In this document: positions 1 to 4,518 of the stretch, in pieces
Layout: each line of letters starts with the position of its first letter
Position numbering within the stretch: position 1 is the stretch's first letter
DNA from: a virus
Lineage: Duplodnaviria; Heunggongvirae; Uroviricota; Caudoviricetes
Length of the DNA stretch: 4,689 nucleotides
Direction: 5' to 3' (one strand)
IMG/VR virus record: IMGVR_UViG_2802429221_000008
Coordinates: 1 to 4,689 of that record
Notes under the pieces: model-generated
What the model saw: the letters and a program-made list of their open reading frames with translations, nothing else
The model's database searches: none
What the model was told of the DNA's origin: nothing
Translations under genes and position numbers: made by a program

Positions 1-81
1 CGCGTAATGTTAACTGGGGCTTTTCTCTATCTGCCTTTTGGTGTTCATGCCTGAGACAGATAGCCTCAAGCACCCGCAGCA

Positions 82-109
82 ATTCTACAAAAAATCATCT
101 CTATTTCAA
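82..109 (-). promoter_or_regulatory. Candidate sigma70 late promoter (pR'-like) immediately downstream of Q
   Basis: On the minus strand: -35 TTGAAA (complement of 104-109), 16-bp spacer, -10 TAGAAT (complement of 82-87). Begins 3 nt after the Q stop codon. The predicted transcript would run toward coordinate 1 and off the window. Confidence 0.35.
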
Positions 110-111
110 TT

Positions 112-522
112 TTACTGTATTTCTGCAACCGGCCTTCCGGATGAGCCGCGCCCAACATATCTGTCCATTTCCAGTCTGATATCAAGCATCATCAACATCC
201 CAGCAACTATCCCCTCAGCCTTTTGCAACAAACGGCCAACCCAGCAATCGGAACGTCCATGTTTCCTTGCCAGTGCCATGAACGTCATTCCGAACACATA
301 GTAATCAACCAGTAAGTCATGTAAATCTTTGTTGTTCTTATTCAGCCGGGCCATGCATCCGCAAATGACCATCGCGTCATCGTCACAACATTGCGGACGT
401 GACTTAACCTTTGACGGAATCAATCCTTTGAATCCCGCAGCAATCGGTGACCAGGTAACATCCTCGTGGTTATTTGCCACCCATGCCCCCCAACGCTCAA
501 GAACCATCTGAATATCACGCAT
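112..522 (-). CDS. Q: Phage late-gene antitermination protein Q family (phage 82 / QuuD-like)
   Basis: 136-aa ORF. N-terminus '[22 protein letters not shown]' and Cys cluster '[18 protein letters not shown]' match my recollection of the 82/QuuD-type Q antiterminators (recalled, not searched). Strong AGGAGG Shine-Dalgarno upstream. Last gene of the operon and followed immediately by a promoter-like element, as expected for Q and pR'. Confidence 0.65.
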
Positions 523-779
523 CAGCGCAGTACCTCCTGCACCAGCTTTTCAAACTTTCCAACTTTGGTTTCCAGCTCTGCCACACAATCCACCAGCTCA
601 TCCACTGCTTTTTGTGCGCGGTGTTTCGCCTGCATCAGTTCCCTGAGCGCCGGCACCATATCCCGACGAATGGCATCTTTTGTTACACCTGTTTTTTCCA
701 GTTGTTCCGCCTGTCGCAACATTTCCTGTGCCTGTTTACGTAGTTGTTCAGGGGTAAAAGTCATTGTCTGGTTGTTCAA
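522..779 (-). CDS. Small hypothetical protein, 85 aa, predicted helical/coiled-coil, charged; translationally coupled to Q
   Basis: ORF begins at TTG (779) with a GGAG Shine-Dalgarno (complement of 788-791) 8 nt upstream; the first in-frame ATG is at 764 (80-aa version) but has no Shine-Dalgarno. Stop TGA overlaps the Q start (TGATG at 520-524). An AGGAGG motif near its 3' end serves as the Q ribosome-binding site. Confidence 0.6.
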
Positions 780-904
780 AAGAAACGCTCCATCTTACTG
801 CTGTCAGTTCGTTTGTTGCTGTATCTGCGCGGCTGAGGCTGCTGCATTGGAAGAGTCCTGTGCGCTCCCCTGAAAGTTGAAATGTTTTAGCGATGCCTCA
901 AGTC

Positions 905-1765
905 TCATTGTTCGCACTCTCCAACCAGATTAAGAATGACTGCCGCCCCGTTGTCTTCCATGTATTCGTCCTTTCCGCTTGCCAGAAACCAGCGGCACAC
1001 CTCCACAGCTTCAGCGCGTGTCACCGGTTTGATGGTTGCCAGTAATTTTTCCAGGTATCGCTCACGGTCGTATACAGACTCATGGTGTTCGTAATAACCA
1101 AAGTCGTAGCCGAGTTCCTGGCCAGCAGTACGGCGAACGTTGTAAAGCCAGTCCCAGTAAACAAATTCACGAACAACATCTGACAGTGTATGAGGCTCTG
1201 GCAGAACGTCACGATAGCCATCAACATATGCGCGACGCTGATCATCAATTTCATTTATACGACTGCCGTTAATGCTTCCGTCTCTCTTTTCGTCTGCGGT
1301 CCAGCCCCACTGGTAATCATCAGTAAATTTTTGGGAAGACCTGATCACTCGCTCGGCCTCTACGTCCTCCATCGCAGCCTCATAGCTGCCGAACGTAGCG
1401 CGAACATCAGCAGCTTTCTTGATGTTCTTACGCGCATTTTCAATGGCTCTCGCTGGATTATCCATACCGATAGTACCGAAAGCTGCCTGGAAAGGATCAC
1501 AGCCATTCGCCAGCAGATAACGGGAATACCGCTCCTCGGCCTCTTTTGGAGAGATTTTAATTTTCTCCAGCGCTGCTTCTGCAGCGTCCAGATGTGCCGG
1601 TTCGTTCAGGCGGATGACCTCCAGTACCCACAGATAGGCATCGGTCTGTTTATGCCCGGTGATTCTCTGTTGCTCAGGCAGAGGCTTGATGTTTGCCAGG
1701 GCGGAGCTATGCGCTGCCGTCGGGATGGTGAATAGTGCTTTATGTTCGTTGTTATCTGTACGCAT
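905..1765 (-). CDS. Hypothetical protein, 286 aa, function unknown; acidic and aromatic-rich (W/Y/D/E) C-terminal half
   Basis: Long ORF whose ATG overlaps the primase stop (TAATG at 1763-1767), indicating co-translation with the replication genes. No catalytic motif recognised by eye. Position corresponds to the variable nin-like region between replication genes and Q. Confidence 0.7.
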   Translation of the reverse strand: MRTDNNEHKALFTIPTAAHSSALANIKPLPEQQRITGHKQTDAYLWVLEVIRLNEPAHLDAAEAALEKIKISPKEAEERYSRYLLANGCDPFQAAFGTIGMDNPARAIENARKNIKKAADVRATFGSYEAAMEDVEAERVIRSSQKFTDDYQWGWTADEKRDGSINGSRINEIDDQRRAYVDGYRDVLPEPHTLSDVVREFVYWDWLYNVRRTAGQELGYDFGYYEHHESVYDRERYLEKLLATIKPVTRAEAVEVCRWFLASGKDEYMEDNGAAVILNLVGECEQ

Positions 1766-2742
1766 TACGCAGCCGCCTTTTTCTTGTAGAAAACCAGCTC
1801 ACGAACCTGATCGCCGTTCATGAGCATGTTGTTAAAATCATCGTGATCGGGCCAGTACACGCTCACGCGCTGCAGGTCATTCTTTGCCAGCAGATTGGCA
1901 TGAGCGCATTCATAGGCCGCTGCCAATCCGGTGGCACTGTTTTCGTCACGGTCAGCAAAAATAATCAGGTGCTTAACGCCAGCCGGAGCACGAAATTTCT
2001 TCATGAAGTTAGCCGTCATAGTTGCCCAGGTGTTTACGTTGTAAATCTGGTGCGCTGACAGAGCCGTTTCGATGCCTTCGGCGATGCCAAGTGTGCTGGC
2101 TACCGGGAACATCCGGATCGCTACTGACCGGGCGTGATCAAGATAGTTATCTTCCTGCAGGGATTTTTGGCGCTTTGCACTGGCACCGATATCTGCTTTT
2201 TTGGGACCATCGAGTAATGTCTGGTGCAGATAGCACAGTTCCCCTTTATCATCGGTGGCGAGGGAATAAAGCGACTGATACACCCTCCCGGCATGGCGCT
2301 GCTTATCGTTGAAACGGATCGCTTCAAGCGGCAGACTGAAAATGCCGCGCGCATTGAGATACGCAGCACCAGAAGTGCCACGTAACGGCTGCAGCTTCGC
2401 GAACTTATTCAGAACCTTTGTACGCAGGCTGGTAGCGCTGCTGCTGACCGGGATTTTTACACGCTGAAAATCATTACCGATCAGGTGGTCTATTTCCCTA
2501 CAAACCTCATTGAATGGTTTTCCCTGTGTCAGGGTGACAAGCTTCATACCGTCACCGCTGCCGCAAGTACAAATCCACGTTCCACGCCCGTCACGGTCAT
2601 CAATTCGCAACTTTCCGCGCGCACCGCATACAGGGCATTCTCCTTTATAGTGATTTTTTCCAGTTATCGGTGGCAGGCCAAAATGCTCTAAAATTTCAGG
2701 CCAGCGGCCTTTCGCAGCATCTACTGTTTTCATAAAACTCAC
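1765..2742 (-). CDS. DNA primase with N-terminal primase-type zinc ribbon and Toprim catalytic domain
   Basis: 325-aa ORF. Zinc ribbon 'CPVCGARGKLRIDDRDGRGTWICTCG' (C36-C60, nt 2563-2637). Toprim-like acidic motifs 'IAEGIETALSA' (E222/E225) and 'LIIFADRDENSATG' (D264/D266), nt about 1939-2091. Start is GTG at 2742 overlapping the helicase stop (GTGA); the first ATG is 9 nt downstream at 2733, so the true start is ambiguous. Stop TAA overlaps the next ATG (TAATG). Confidence 0.8.
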   Translation of the reverse strand: MSFMKTVDAAKGRWPEILEHFGLPPITGKNHYKGECPVCGARGKLRIDDRDGRGTWICTCGSGDGMKLVTLTQGKPFNEVCREIDHLIGNDFQRVKIPVSSSATSLRTKVLNKFAKLQPLRGTSGAAYLNARGIFSLPLEAIRFNDKQRHAGRVYQSLYSLATDDKGELCYLHQTLLDGPKKADIGASAKRQKSLQEDNYLDHARSVAIRMFPVASTLGIAEGIETALSAHQIYNVNTWATMTANFMKKFRAPAGVKHLIIFADRDENSATGLAAAYECAHANLLAKNDLQRVSVYWPDHDDFNNMLMNGDQVRELVFYKKKAAA

Positions 2743-4391
2743 ACCACTACATTTTTCTGAAGTTGCTGTTTGGCGTTGATAATTGCCTTAGTCGGGCAGT
2801 TCTCAGGGAGCTCGTAAATTGCGGCACAACCTGGCGGCAATGCGCCTGCATGATGAGATTCTGTCTGTGGTTGAGGGGGGCGTTTTTGCCCCTTCGCAAA
2901 CCTGATGAGTTTGTATCTGATGTAGTTGCTTACCTCCGGGGTAATTTCCATCGGGAAATCACTCAGGTTATCCGGCCATTCGCCGAACTTCTCCCGGAAA
3001 GTGTGAGCGCACCAGCCATCACTAACGGGCTTTTTCCCCTGCGATACGCGCTGGCGCTGATAAAATTTGATCTGGCTCCACCAAGCCTGTTTCTCTGCCT
3101 TTGTCGATAGATGCTGATTTTTACCCAGCTTTTTAAGTTTGCGCCCGGTATCGGTATCGACATCCTCACCACCCAACGGCTTATGCCCGCATTTCGGGCA
3201 GACGTATACACCAGCGGGTTTCATGTAGTGGCATTGAGAACATTCATGGGGGAGTTTTTCGGCCCGCTCCTCAGCTGCACGGCGCGCACTTTCCTCCATG
3301 CCATCAGACTTACCGGGGAGATCGTCATACTCGATAGAATCCGGGTAACCGAGGCGGTGTACGGTGCCACTGTGATCGAATATGAGACAAGATTCTTTAC
3401 CCGGCGCTGTGCGCAGGCCGCGCCCAATCGCCTGCAGCCAGCGAATTTCACTTTTTGTTGGCCTGGCGTAGATGATGCAACGAACGTCACTATCGAAGCC
3501 AGCCACCAGAACGCCCACACTAACGATGATTTTCGTTGCACCAGTTTCAAAGCGGTGAATGATGGTCTGACGCTCATCCACTGGCGTGTTGGCGGTCATG
3601 ACCTCAGCGTTAATGCCAGCTTGGTTAAACTGGATTGTCAGAAAATTAGCATGGGCTACGTTGACGCAGAACGCGATTGTCGGCAGATCCCGGCCATTCT
3701 CCAGCCAGTTCTGTACGATGTCGCCCACCAGCGTAGAGCCGCACATGATTTCAGCCAGTTGAGCTTCGTTATAATCGTTGCCGTACTCAAGTGAAGACTT
3801 GGTTTTTACGCCTTTCAGATCCGGCTTTGTTGGCGCATAAAATTCGTATTTACTCAGATCGCCACGCTGGATTAACTCGCCGATGGTGGTCGGTTTAATC
3901 AGTCGGTCATAGTATTTGCCCAGGAACGGGGAAAACGGAGTACCCGACAGGCCAATCACCTTTACGCCTTTGCCGCGCAGACGTTCGATATCCTTCAGGA
4001 TGCGTTTTTTACGCAGGTGTGCTTCGTCGATAATCAGCAGATCAATATTTTCAGGAAAAACACGACGAATAAGCGTGTCGGCGCTGGCAATCTGAATTTT
4101 CCGGTCCGGATCGTAGTTCGGGTGATCCGCCCAGATATAACCGATTTCATCCTCCGGTAACCCGTACTCCACGAAGCGATTAGCCGTCTGACCAATCAGG
4201 ATAGTGTACGGTGCACAAAACAGAACGCGCATACCACGGCTGACGAACCCGGCAACGATGAAAGCGGCCAAACCGGTTTTACCGCTACCAGTTGGCGAAT
4301 ACACCATGAAGGTGTCATTTGCCTTCCAGTCACGACGCAACATGTTTAACGCTCGTTCCTGTGCAAAATTCGGCGTGATCGTCAGCTCCAT
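2739..4391 (-). CDS. Superfamily-2 DEAD/DEAH-box DNA helicase, phage replication type, with C-terminal CxxC...CxxC zinc ribbon and an uncharacterised ~150-aa tail
   Basis: 550-aa ORF. Walker A 'SPTGSGKT' (residues 32-39, nt 4275-4298), motif II 'LLIIDEAH' (DEAH at residues 122-125, nt 4017-4028), motif III-like 'LSGTP', motif VI-like 'QAIGRGLR' (320-327). Zinc ribbon 'CSQCHYMKPAGVYVCPKCGHK' (C384-C401, nt 3189-3242). GGAG Shine-Dalgarno 7 nt upstream of the ATG at 4391. Stop TGA overlaps the primase start. Confidence 0.85.
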   Translation of the reverse strand: MELTITPNFAQERALNMLRRDWKANDTFMVYSPTGSGKTGLAAFIVAGFVSRGMRVLFCAPYTILIGQTANRFVEYGLPEDEIGYIWADHPNYDPDRKIQIASADTLIRRVFPENIDLLIIDEAHLRKKRILKDIERLRGKGVKVIGLSGTPFSPFLGKYYDRLIKPTTIGELIQRGDLSKYEFYAPTKPDLKGVKTKSSLEYGNDYNEAQLAEIMCGSTLVGDIVQNWLENGRDLPTIAFCVNVAHANFLTIQFNQAGINAEVMTANTPVDERQTIIHRFETGATKIIVSVGVLVAGFDSDVRCIIYARPTKSEIRWLQAIGRGLRTAPGKESCLIFDHSGTVHRLGYPDSIEYDDLPGKSDGMEESARRAAEERAEKLPHECSQCHYMKPAGVYVCPKCGHKPLGGEDVDTDTGRKLKKLGKNQHLSTKAEKQAWWSQIKFYQRQRVSQGKKPVSDGWCAHTFREKFGEWPDNLSDFPMEITPEVSNYIRYKLIRFAKGQKRPPQPQTESHHAGALPPGCAAIYELPENCPTKAIINAKQQLQKNVVV

Positions 4392-4441
4392 TGTTTTGCT
4401 CCAGTGCTGATGAGATAATAATTTTGTGATGTGGTTTTCAT
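4382..4441 (-). CDS. Candidate 19-aa upstream ORF (MKTTSQNYYLISTGAKQWS) overlapping the helicase start
   Basis: ATG (complement of 4439-4441) lies 5 nt after a strong GAGGGGG Shine-Dalgarno (complement of 4447-4453). Its TGA stop (complement of 4382-4384) overlaps the helicase initiation region (ATG at 4389-4391) in another frame. Below the length cut-off of the supplied ORF track. Confidence 0.2.
   Translation of the reverse strand: MKTTSQNYYLISTGAKQWS
4391..4419 (+). promoter_or_regulatory. Weak candidate plus-strand promoter that could drive an antisense RNA ending at the 4560-4596 terminator
   Basis: TTGTTT (4391-4396), 17-bp spacer, GATAAT (4414-4419); the -10 matches TATAAT at 5 of 6 positions, the -35 only at TTG. 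Overlaps the helicase start codon on the other strand. Confidence 0.2.
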
Positions 4442-4457
4442 GGATTCCCCCTCACAT

Positions 4458-4491
4458 GGCTGGTGGCCTCCCCAAAGGCTGCCAGCCTCCC
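4458..4491. repeat. Tandem imperfect direct repeat GGCTGnnnGCCTCCC (two copies, 19-bp register); the second copy contains the perfect 11-bp palindrome GGCTGCCAGCC
   Basis: GGCTGGTGGCCTCCCC at 4458-4473 and GGCTGCCAGCCTCCC at 4477-4491. GGCTGCCAGCC (4477-4487) equals its own reverse complement about the central C. Located in the leader upstream of the helicase gene. Confidence 0.5.
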
Positions 4492-4518
4492 TTCTGATTC
4501 AGTTCCCCTGAAAAACAC

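Follow-up and report, generated by a model that had tools for sequence, protein, structure and literature searches.

The window analysed in this study, that is, the whole stretch of 4,689 nt of viral DNA in whose numbering all positions are given, carries an ORF of 85 codons (85 aa) at positions 779–522. This ORF and all the other features described here lie on the minus strand. The gene directly downstream (112–522, 136 aa) encodes a Q antiterminator of the Q21 type. It matches PF06530 (E = 1.3e-51; 173.9 bits vs. a cut-off of 26) at residues 1–118 of the 118-position model, it matches PHROG 79, and it is related to Q21 (PDB 6P18 and 6JNX; E = 8e-9) over 83 residues, corresponding to Q21 residues 20–103. 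The full-length PF06530 match and a promoter-like site directly after the Q stop codon are shared with Q21 of phage 21, whereas the identity between the two proteins is only distant at this E value and the Q of the window is shorter (136 vs. 162 aa). The promoter-like site (82–109, TTGAAA-16-TAGAAT) showed 10 of 12 matches in the consensus scan, and a partial match to Rfam RF01794 begins at its expected transcription start. We infer that this site is a candidate late promoter (pR′).

The 85-aa gene overlaps coding sequence at both of its ends. Its stop codon TGA (524–522) shares its A with the ATG of Q (522–520), which gives a 1-nt TGATG overlap (520–524), and the AGGAGG Shine-Dalgarno sequence of Q (533–538) lies inside codons Q81-E82-V83 of the 85-aa gene, 10 nt before the Q ATG. 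Both features had been read from the sequence before, and the present analysis found them at these positions. At the other end, the putative start codon TTG (777–779) is preceded by a GGAG Shine-Dalgarno sequence (788–791) with an 8-nt spacer. The TTG overlaps the stop codon TGA (778–776) of a helicase gene remnant in the form TTGA. This remnant (776–850) derives from a dnaB-like helicase gene of phiP27 type, of which it retains the 3′-end. The similarity to phiP27 and Stx1a phage DNA (94% identity) runs from position 850 downward, the dnaB-frame translation of the remnant matches the C-terminus of the phiP27 helicase, and PGAP annotates the equivalent stretch in E. coli O121 as a helicase pseudogene. 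In a chimeric relic ORF at 804–908, 14 codons from the start of a long Q gene of Fels-1 type are fused out of frame to the dnaB remnant. Its translations and the alignment place a joint at the microhomology TCAGG(G/A)(G/A)A, and the 85-aa gene sits at this recombination joint. The consensus scan detected no promoter-like site in the gap at 780–904, and no minus-strand terminator-like site was detected between the replication genes and Q. A separate transcription unit and a nin-type terminator were therefore dropped. Under the ORF, Rfam gave one chance match to an archaeal snoRNA (E = 0.11; 23 bits vs. a gathering score of 50).

The window contains 48 ORFs of at least 30 aa, several of which are spurious at 85–135 aa, and the length of the 85-codon ORF by itself is not beyond chance. 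The ORF is a genuine gene, because it is conserved under purifying selection and its 85 codons are intact across loci and genomes. The dN/dS was 0.05–0.18 against the copies of phiP27, Stx1a and Stx2a phages and Klebsiella, and values of 0.125–0.18 at dS 1.3–2.2 show that purifying selection persists up to saturating synonymous divergence. Among 42 haplotypes, the variable sites at the first, second and third codon positions numbered 21, 14 and 59. The 85-codon ORF is intact in 84 close loci, in three further phage copies at 62–69% identity, and in 176 of 5426 complete E. coli genomes, the family occurring in approximately 3% of such genomes. A protein 100% identical to that of the window was found on at least 1000 contigs. 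The gene is already annotated in thousands of genomes and widely catalogued, and it is uncharacterised.

The protein belongs to PHROG 2565 (E = 3.8e-32; 112.9 bits), its residues 2–84 aligning with profile positions 121–203 of 204. A second match was to PHROG 2539 (residues 5–79, E = 2.3e-17). These profiles have approximately 204 and 229 positions, respectively, and the protein covers only their C-terminal third. The core motif TPExLR...P...D..[IV]D..A.LE is common to the protein and the family members. Among 25 aligned members, P43 and D64 are invariant, and P10, A24, K39, L41 and D60 are conserved in at least 90%. The relatives are either stand-alone proteins of 80–93 aa or the C-terminal domain of rare phage proteins of 170–265 aa. 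The long relatives carry a winged-helix-like N-terminus and a zinc ribbon, parts that the 85-aa protein lacks. The AlphaFold2 model of a 230-aa long relative had a pLDDT of 72 and a pTM of 0.27, and its winged-helix and Stc1 zinc-finger matches in Foldseek were insignificant, so that this model gives a weak architectural hint at most.

A remote homology search, which the sequence-only reading had proposed, led to a family of unknown function, and neither Pfam, NCBIfam and PDB nor the fold comparison yielded a significant match. No Pfam model matched above threshold; 12 sub-threshold matches of coiled-coil type appeared at E up to 1, the best being GA_3 (18.9 bits vs. a cut-off of 27), and no NinB/D/E/F/G/H model appeared in the same range. 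The NCBIfam scan gave nothing significant. PADLOC gave no significant defence or anti-defence match, the best being PDC-M40C (E = 3e-4, 18.4 bits) along a stretch of coiled-coil type, which was taken as low-complexity helical similarity. GA_3, BLOC1_2, ZorA and PDC-M40C were all dismissed as sub-threshold coiled-coil noise. The PDB sequence search with the 25-member profile found nothing below E = 0.49. Foldseek of the AlphaFold2 model against PDB and BFVD gave best E values of 0.3–0.9, none below 0.3, and these matches, all of them generic helical hairpins (such as an insertion of the mycobacterial RNA polymerase β′ subunit and designed bundles), were rejected as meaningless. The profile search of a 5.8-billion-protein database returned only the name "hypothetical protein". 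Nothing was found in the literature under the accession and family identifiers of the protein, and the papers on the Eru replication module make no mention of the gene.

The protein is predicted to be a charged helical hairpin. The AlphaFold2 model has helices at residues 10–29 and 34–84 with a mean pLDDT of 85, in agreement with the charged, helical product expected from the sequence alone, and continuous heptads can be read from its sequence. The second helix would extend approximately 30 residues beyond the first in an antiparallel hairpin, with its heptads uninterrupted; it is therefore most likely that the protein forms a coiled coil with copies of itself or with a partner. This oligomeric state is deduced from a model of the monomer.

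The neighbours of the gene were compared across loci. The upstream gene is a full DnaB-like helicase gene in 72 of 87 loci, lying directly upstream with a 4-nt overlap, and a remnant of it in 8 of 87. All eight truncated cases retain the dnaB 3′-end, and the Stx2a group, whose copies are 69% identical, also sits after the helicase gene. These observations favour the idea that the protein assists the DnaB-like replicative helicase of the phage as an accessory factor, produced in a fixed ratio with it through the TTGA overlap, and that the copy in the window became an orphan after a module swap. We consider this unlikely. The gene is intact in at least four recombinants without the helicase (the window, the O121 type, and those with remnants of 73 and 53 codons). 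In more distant relatives the preceding genes are unrelated to the helicase: a small hypothetical gene in Hafnia, a gene for a 292-aa protein in Klebsiella, one for a 632-aa replication protein in locus L091, and NinB plus a 195-aa ORF in locus L092. The tight linkage in the close group may only mirror the recent common ancestry of one module.

Downstream of the gene, Q was found in 49 of 88 loci, RusA in 29 and another gene in 10 (Dam methylase, YdfU-like, NinH-like or another). The more distant relatives likewise lie between the replication genes and Q. From the contact with Q it had been proposed that the small protein is obligatorily co-expressed with the late antiterminator and may be a timing regulator or a host-directed effector. 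In its full form, this proposal says that translation of Q needs the weak TTG ORF and that the protein modulates the late genes or a host target. It can draw on the TGATG overlap, on the position of the Q ribosome-binding site within the ORF, and on a predicted 7-bp hairpin that involves part of this site. It can also draw on the 49 loci in which the downstream gene is a Q of the same family, in many alleles at 43–95% identity. The rest of the comparison makes the proposal quite improbable. The gene precedes rusA in 29 of 88 loci in copies 92–97% identical, which overlap rusA through the same AGGAGG-N10-TGATG cassette; the 1-nt overlap recurs in nearly all close loci, with Q and with rusA alike. 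In the Stx2a phages, a 331-aa YdfU-like gene separates the 85-aa gene from Q, and in Hafnia and Klebsiella the overlap is with a gene for a Dam methylase; NinH-like genes occur downstream in other lineages. Adjacency to Q is thus not conserved across the relatives. On this comparison the 85-aa gene is not a dedicated partner of Q, and the claims of obligate co-expression and of a Q-linked timing function are not supported; a host-directed effector found no support in this analysis either. Lying directly against Q does not mark a gene as a partner of Q, as near-identical copies hug rusA.

Stop/start overlaps (ATGA or TGATG) are common in coupled gene pairs of bacterial and phage operons. The pair of the 85-aa gene and Q resembles such classical pairs in its 1-nt overlap and in that the ribosome-binding site of the second gene lies within the first; in the ancestral form a further overlap, of 4 nt (TTGA), marks the 5′-end. 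It differs from them in that Q has its own strong ribosome-binding site and that the fold predicted for the local mRNA has no significant stability. The anti-Shine-Dalgarno duplex at the Q ATG has an energy of −11.6 kcal/mol, and a strict dependence of Q on upstream translation is unlikely for this reason. A local 7-bp hairpin is predicted to cover part of the Q ribosome-binding site in most Q-linked variants, so that some real dependence of Q translation on the ORF is possible. The local 131-nt fold did not exceed shuffled sequences in stability (z = 0.01), and the variants keep the hairpin through single G-U-compatible changes only, with no compensatory pairs. Both results weigh against the timing proposal, as does the strength of the Q site. 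With a strong site for Q itself and a local fold of no significant stability, the dependence of Q on translation of the ORF would probably be partial, and the overlap would give Q initiation at most a generic boost. Of the earlier claim that Q translation depends on the ORF, the overlap and the internal ribosome-binding site stand, whereas the strict dependence is improbable. The overlap appears to be ordinary operon packing, since near-identical copies overlap the DNA-repair gene rusA instead. The overlap of Q with its preceding gene is also not special, because ninI and Q of lambda overlap as well (4 nt).

The start codon of the 85-aa gene has been annotated in two ways. The PGAP and DFAST records call the TTG start (85 aa), and the RefSeq annotation of P27p20 in phiP27 begins at the ATG (80 aa). 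In the window, an in-frame TAA at 797–795 makes the TTG at 779–777 the earliest start available. The ATG at 764–762 (Met6) is preceded by aaccagaca, with no Shine-Dalgarno sequence. The duplex with the 3′-end of the 16S rRNA has an energy of −6.2 kcal/mol at the TTG vs. +0.4 kcal/mol at the ATG. The TTG and GGAG, in the form GGAGCGTTT(C/A)TT-TTG, are retained in 83 of 84 close loci and also in the Stx2a group, whose copies are 69% identical. The codon for Met6 is variable among the copies: four close haplotypes have ACA, TTA or ATA, and the Stx2a group has ACC; in the latter no ATG occurs before codon 20, which lies within the conserved core. At the codon equivalent to TTG, Hafnia phage yong2 has GTG and Klebsiella KpnBHU6 has ATG, and each of these starts has a 4-nt overlap with the upstream stop codon. 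A start at TTG-779 and not at ATG-764, as the sequence-only reading had it from the well-spaced GGAG and the bare ATG, is therefore well supported by the comparative evidence, and we regard the conflict between the phiP27 RefSeq record and the PGAP and DFAST records as settled in favour of the TTG.

The other choice, an 80-aa gene starting at ATG-764 with the TTG and GGAG as merely the tail of the helicase gene, is very unlikely, even with the RefSeq record of P27p20 behind it. The GGAG-N8-TTG stretch also codes for the last helicase residues (..ERFF*), which could account for its conservation; however, the GGAG and TTG persist in the window and in other recombinants that keep only a helicase remnant. 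One close locus has neither GGAG nor TTG and keeps the ATG, and the conserved core of the protein begins only at T9-P10. Set against these points are the missing Shine-Dalgarno sequence, the replacement of the ATG in four close haplotypes and the whole Stx2a group, and the GTG or ATG at the TTG-equivalent codon in the Hafnia and Klebsiella relatives. In the Stx2a group, an ATG start would also remove 19 residues, including the conserved PEQLR motif. It is extremely improbable that positions 779–522 are kept only as a recombination linker or translation-signal cassette with a functionless peptide: the ORF does lie exactly between exchangeable modules, with breakpoints just upstream, within and just downstream of it and with signals used by the neighbour genes at its ends, but the amino-acid purifying selection is strong (dN/dS 0.125–0.18 at dS 1.3–2.2), relatives without DNA similarity still have a length of 85 aa and the invariant residues P43 and D64, and longer proteins carry the domain as their C-terminus.

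The position of the gene recalls ren and ninB–ninI, which lie between P and Q in lambda. Like them, it is small and accessory, follows the replication genes directly and has stop/start overlaps with its neighbours on the rightward early transcript, ahead of Q (in lambda, 4 nt for ren-P as for ninI-Q). The copies of the 85-aa gene have typical nin genes as neighbours (RusA, NinB, NinG-like, NinH-like, Dam). Unlike in lambda, the whole nin interval of the window is shrunk to this single gene, and there is no sequence relationship between it and the lambda ren and nin genes. Lambda Ren (NP_040633) was rejected as a homologue (hhalign probability 0.1%, E = 0.52).

The explanation that we favour, and hold to be quite probable, is that of a genuine, TTG-started accessory early gene of nin type with a helical hairpin product that is no dedicated partner of Q. 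It would be a delayed-early gene in a lambda-like prophage of E. coli, located in the short nin-type stretch that separates the replication genes from Q. Its translation would initiate at TTG-779 from the moderate GGAG ribosome-binding site. The ancestral layout would be that of phiP27 and the Stx1a and Stx2a phages, in which the TTG overlaps the stop codon of the DnaB-like helicase gene (TTGA). The stop codon of the 85-aa gene would overlap the start of whichever gene follows (TGATG), with the AGGAGG embedded in its last codons. With these two overlaps, ribosomes would read the three genes one after the other, as a chain, from a single rightward early transcript. In the window, the upstream partner was probably swapped by illegitimate recombination for a Fels-1-like helicase/primase module, leaving over approximately 70 nt of the dnaB 3′-end. 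As only this remnant is present, the gene would have to rely on its own GGAG and TTG here. The role of the product would be that of an accessory early protein, and not that of a dedicated partner of Q.

We also speculate, with little confidence, on a more specific role. The conserved 3′-end (AGGAGG-N10-TGATG), part of which falls in the small hairpin, may be a portable translational-coupling cassette, and the chain of helicase gene, ORF and Q may meter the build-up of Q, because the ORF starts at a weak TTG that was ancestrally fed by ribosomes finishing the helicase gene. Additionally or alternatively, the hairpin protein may be a new adaptor on a DNA-transaction protein, acting alone or fused to winged-helix and zinc-ribbon domains. 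If true, such metering of Q would determine when the cell lyses and, for Stx phages, when toxin is released. The practical value of the gene itself is limited; any phenotype would be new, and nothing here predicts a surprising one.

Stx-type and phiP27-type prophages have a compact recombination joint in common. Its parts, the helicase 3′-end, the 85-aa gene and the beginning of Q or rusA with its first codons, act as a shared linker across which replication and late-control modules are exchanged. This matters for the reassortment of Q alleles and hence for the potential of Stx expression. Locus L058 has an upstream joint identical to that of the window and rusA downstream, and its divergence from the window starts inside the ORF.

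All genes in the window are on the minus strand. The Q antiterminator gene (522..112, 136 aa) encodes a protein with a PF06530 match (E = 1.3e-51, 173.9 bits) that is related to the solved Q21 protein (E = 8e-9). Directly before it lies a small ORF of 85 codons with a TTG start (779..522). The sequence-only reading of this ORF was correct in all its sequence statements. The TTG (779-777) follows a GGAG (791-788) 8 nt upstream, and the internal ATG at 764-762 (ATG-764) is not preceded by a purine-rich element. The stop codon TGA (524-522) shares its A with the ATG of Q to form TGATG, and the AGGAGG of Q (538-533) lies 10 nt 5′ of the Q start. An in-frame TAA (797-795) is located 5′ of the small ORF start.

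The length of the small ORF alone is no proof of a gene; the window contains 48 ORFs of at least 30 aa, among them antisense ones (89 and 135 aa) over the same stretch. A database protein 100% identical to its product is present on at least 1000 contigs, and nearly all of the 120 closest relatives listed are 85 aa long. Of 5426 complete E. coli genomes, 176 contain its DNA, annotated as a hypothetical protein. Variable sites at codon positions 1/2/3 numbered 21/14/59 (84 close loci, 42 haplotypes). The dN/dS by the Nei-Gojobori method was 0.05 against the copies of phiP27 and Stx1a phages, 0.05 against copies of 92–93% identity, 0.125 against a Klebsiella copy and 0.18 against the Stx2a-phage group of 69% identity. 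The small ORF is evidently a gene, and the antisense ORFs are by-products, because the minus-strand frame is the one under selection. Thousands of genomes already have the gene on record, its TTG start is called by PGAP, and it belongs to an existing uncharacterised family of PHROG, the collection of phage protein families. Our analysis contributes the argument on the start codon, the evidence from variable neighbours and the recombination joint.

A total of 88 loci were located, namely the window, phage records, one E. coli chromosome and 80 viral contigs, and their neighbours were classified. The upstream gene in 72 of 87 loci is a full-length DnaB-like helicase gene whose stop codon overlaps the TTG as TTGA, and 8 loci carry helicase remnants of 77, 73 or 53 codons. 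We consider it unlikely that the small protein is a helicase accessory factor that is now orphaned. The 3′ junction of the small gene is almost always a TGATG overlap with the downstream gene, which is a PF06530-type Q in 49 of the 88 loci, RusA in 29 and others in 10. The 49 Q genes comprise 24 distinct alleles with 43–100% identity to the window Q. In Stx2a phages, a 331-aa YdfU-like/HNH gene is located between the small ORF and Q. In Stx2_95 of this group (L005 2755-2810), the TGATG at the end of the small gene is still present, but its ATG opens just a 14-codon ORF (MAEFFLLRSCNTVR*), and the next real gene is the YdfU-like one, which starts 45 nt further on. The 14-codon ORF resembles a remnant of a neighbour that the small gene formerly overlapped. 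In Hafnia phage yong2, the gene overlapped by the small ORF is a Dam methylase gene; rusA and then a further ORF separate this gene from the antiterminator.

Distant relatives likewise sit between replication genes and Q. One locus (L091) has the order 632-aa replication protein, small gene, YdfU-like gene and Q-like gene; another (L092) has NinB, a 195-aa ORF, a 178-aa long form of the protein, a NinG-like gene and Q. A long form of 237 aa, present in Shigella phage 75/02 Stx and relatives of that phage, belongs to the leftward early operon, with the repressor region on one side and kil on the other. Since the neighbours vary, the small gene is a nin-region-type accessory early gene and not a partner of Q. 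The same packing is found in lambda, with 4-nt overlaps of ren with P and of ninI with Q.

The proposal of a Q-specific timing regulator does not hold against this variety of downstream genes. Together with obligate coupling, such a regulator is improbable. The dependence of Q translation on the small ORF was also proposed; partial coupling is possible, and a strict need is argued against by the very strong ribosome-binding site of Q (16S rRNA 3′-end pairing energy −11.6 kcal/mol), with which Q should be able to initiate on its own. Most Q-linked variants have a predicted 7-bp hairpin (GGUGCAG/CUGCGCU) that leaves GAGG in the loop, and its variants show only G-U-compatible single changes. The local 131-nt region folded no better than shuffled sequence (z = 0.01). 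The overlap is probably generic operon compaction, which may modestly aid Q initiation and is not required for it.

Public annotation of the small-gene start is split. RefSeq gives phiP27 P27p20 an ATG start (80 aa; L001 2587-2829), whereas PGAP E. coli O121 and Stx1a/Stx2a phage records have the TTG start (85 aa; for example L002 2571-2828 and L004 7010-7267). Four lines of evidence favour TTG. First, GGAGCGTTT(C/A)TT-TTG is kept in 83 of 84 close loci, while the ATG-764 codon is ACA, TTA or ATA in four close haplotypes. Second, the Stx2a-converting phage group (69.5% identity, 85 codons) has an identical GGAG-N8-TTG; its reading continues TTG AAC AAC AGA ACC ACC ACT, and its first ATG is codon 20, within the conserved core. 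Third, the TTG-equivalent codon is GTG after GGAGG-N8 in yong2 (62% identity) and ATG in Klebsiella KpnBHU6 (69%); both copies have 85 codons and a 4-nt overlap with the upstream stop. Fourth, no ribosome-binding site was found before ATG-764 (+0.4 kcal/mol, against −6.2 kcal/mol at TTG). The conservation of the GGAG..TTG stretch is partly due to its second role as coding sequence for the C-terminal residues of the upstream helicase (..ERFF*), yet the stretch is also kept in recombinants whose helicase is reduced to a stump. One locus has lost GGAG and TTG and kept the ATG. A start at ATG-764 is quite improbable, and TTG-779 is very probably where translation of the small gene begins, within the rightward early polycistronic mRNA.

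A chimeric relic ORF of 34 codons (908..804), ending 24 nt before the TTG, marks an illegitimate recombination joint. From 850 downward, the window shares 94% identity with phiP27 and Stx1a phages. The joint, near 850-868, lies at the short microhomology TCAGG(G/A)(G/A)A (alignment A4, across the joint). The left side comprises 14 codons from the start of a Fels-1-type long Q gene (MRLEASLKHFNFQG vs MKLEASLKHFSPQG), with an ATG that still overlaps the stop codon of a 286-aa gene; the right side, out of frame, comprises the last ~23 codons (~70 nt) of a dnaB-like helicase gene of the phiP27 type. With the helicase gene lost, ribosomes that complete the helicase can no longer feed the small gene in the window, which depends on the GGAG and TTG of its own. 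E. coli O121 strains have the same two modules joined elsewhere, and their 77-codon helicase remnant is a PGAP pseudogene. A viral contig (L058) has the upstream joint exactly as in the window and rusA downstream. The two sequences (L058 3846-4281 vs window 500-935) match perfectly until about codon 11 of the small ORF, after which identity falls, implying a recombination breakpoint inside the small gene. These joints indicate that the small gene and its flanks are a shared linker across which modules exchange.

The replication module left of the joint (4501..878) shares ~85% identity with Salmonella phage Fels-1 and E. coli phage phi467. Its genes (905-4391) encode a 550-aa SF2 DEAD/DEAH helicase (4391..2739; ResIII, DEAD and Helicase_C domains), a 325-aa zinc-ribbon/Toprim primase (2742..1765) and the 286-aa PHROG 6204 protein (1765..905), and adjacent pairs overlap by 1–4 nt. 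The module is similar to 'Eru1', the non-lambdoid replication unit of Stx phage TL-2011c, except in its third gene, which encodes the 286-aa protein without a Pfam domain here and a 149-aa DUF1367 protein in TL-2011c (PMC8044961). Upstream of the helicase gene (4431-4518) is an imperfect 12-nt inverted repeat (GGCTGGTGGCCT / AGGCTGCCAGCC, 6-nt loop), which also forms a 15-nt direct repeat with 19-nt spacing and is nested within a 13-nt inverted repeat (4431-4443 / 4506-4518). These repeats could be an operator, origin or structure element.

The small protein matched PHROG 2565 (E = 3.8e-32) and PHROG 2539 (E = 2.3e-17), both of unknown function and both only in the C-terminal third of the profile. 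No function was obtained from Pfam, NCBIfam, PADLOC, PDB-sequence or Foldseek matches, and the literature searches run found no mention of the gene. It is unrelated in sequence to lambda Ren, although the position is the same. When 1.84 billion cluster representatives were searched exhaustively with HMMER, only 33 clusters had E ≤ 1e-3, either stand-alone proteins of 80–93 aa or C-terminal domains of 170–265-aa proteins. The long relatives have an extra winged-helix-like N-terminus and a CxxC..CxxC zinc ribbon common to endonuclease VII/HNH-type PHROGs; structural matches of these domains were not significant. P43 and D64 are invariant in the cluster alignment, P10, A24, K39, L41 and D60 are nearly so, and a non-functional linker peptide is hardly credible. 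AlphaFold2 (single sequence, mean pLDDT 85) predicted helices 10-29 and 34-84, the second longer by ~30 residues. Read directly from the sequence, hydrophobic residues recur at 3–4 spacing in helix 1 (13/17/20/24/27) and helix 2 (37/41/45/48/52/55/59/62/66/69/73/76/80/83). A monomeric hairpin would have a bare heptad surface, which suggests that the protein forms a coiled coil with itself or with a partner. The protein may act as a coiled-coil oligomer or adaptor with an accessory early function, by its neighbourhood most plausibly in DNA transactions.

Directly after the Q stop, a promoter-like TTGAAA-16-TAGAAT (82-109, minus strand; 10/12 matches) is a candidate Q-dependent late promoter pR′. 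An Rfam match to RF01794 'sok antitoxin (CssrC)' (16-75, minus strand; 58.1 bits, just under the gathering score of 59; E = 1.8e-11) begins at the expected transcription start of this site and covers model positions 1-58 of 157. It ends at position 16, 15 nt from the window edge; Infernal gave no cut-off flag, yet the remaining ~100 positions could not fit. Rather than a true sok, this element may be the beginning of the late leader RNA.
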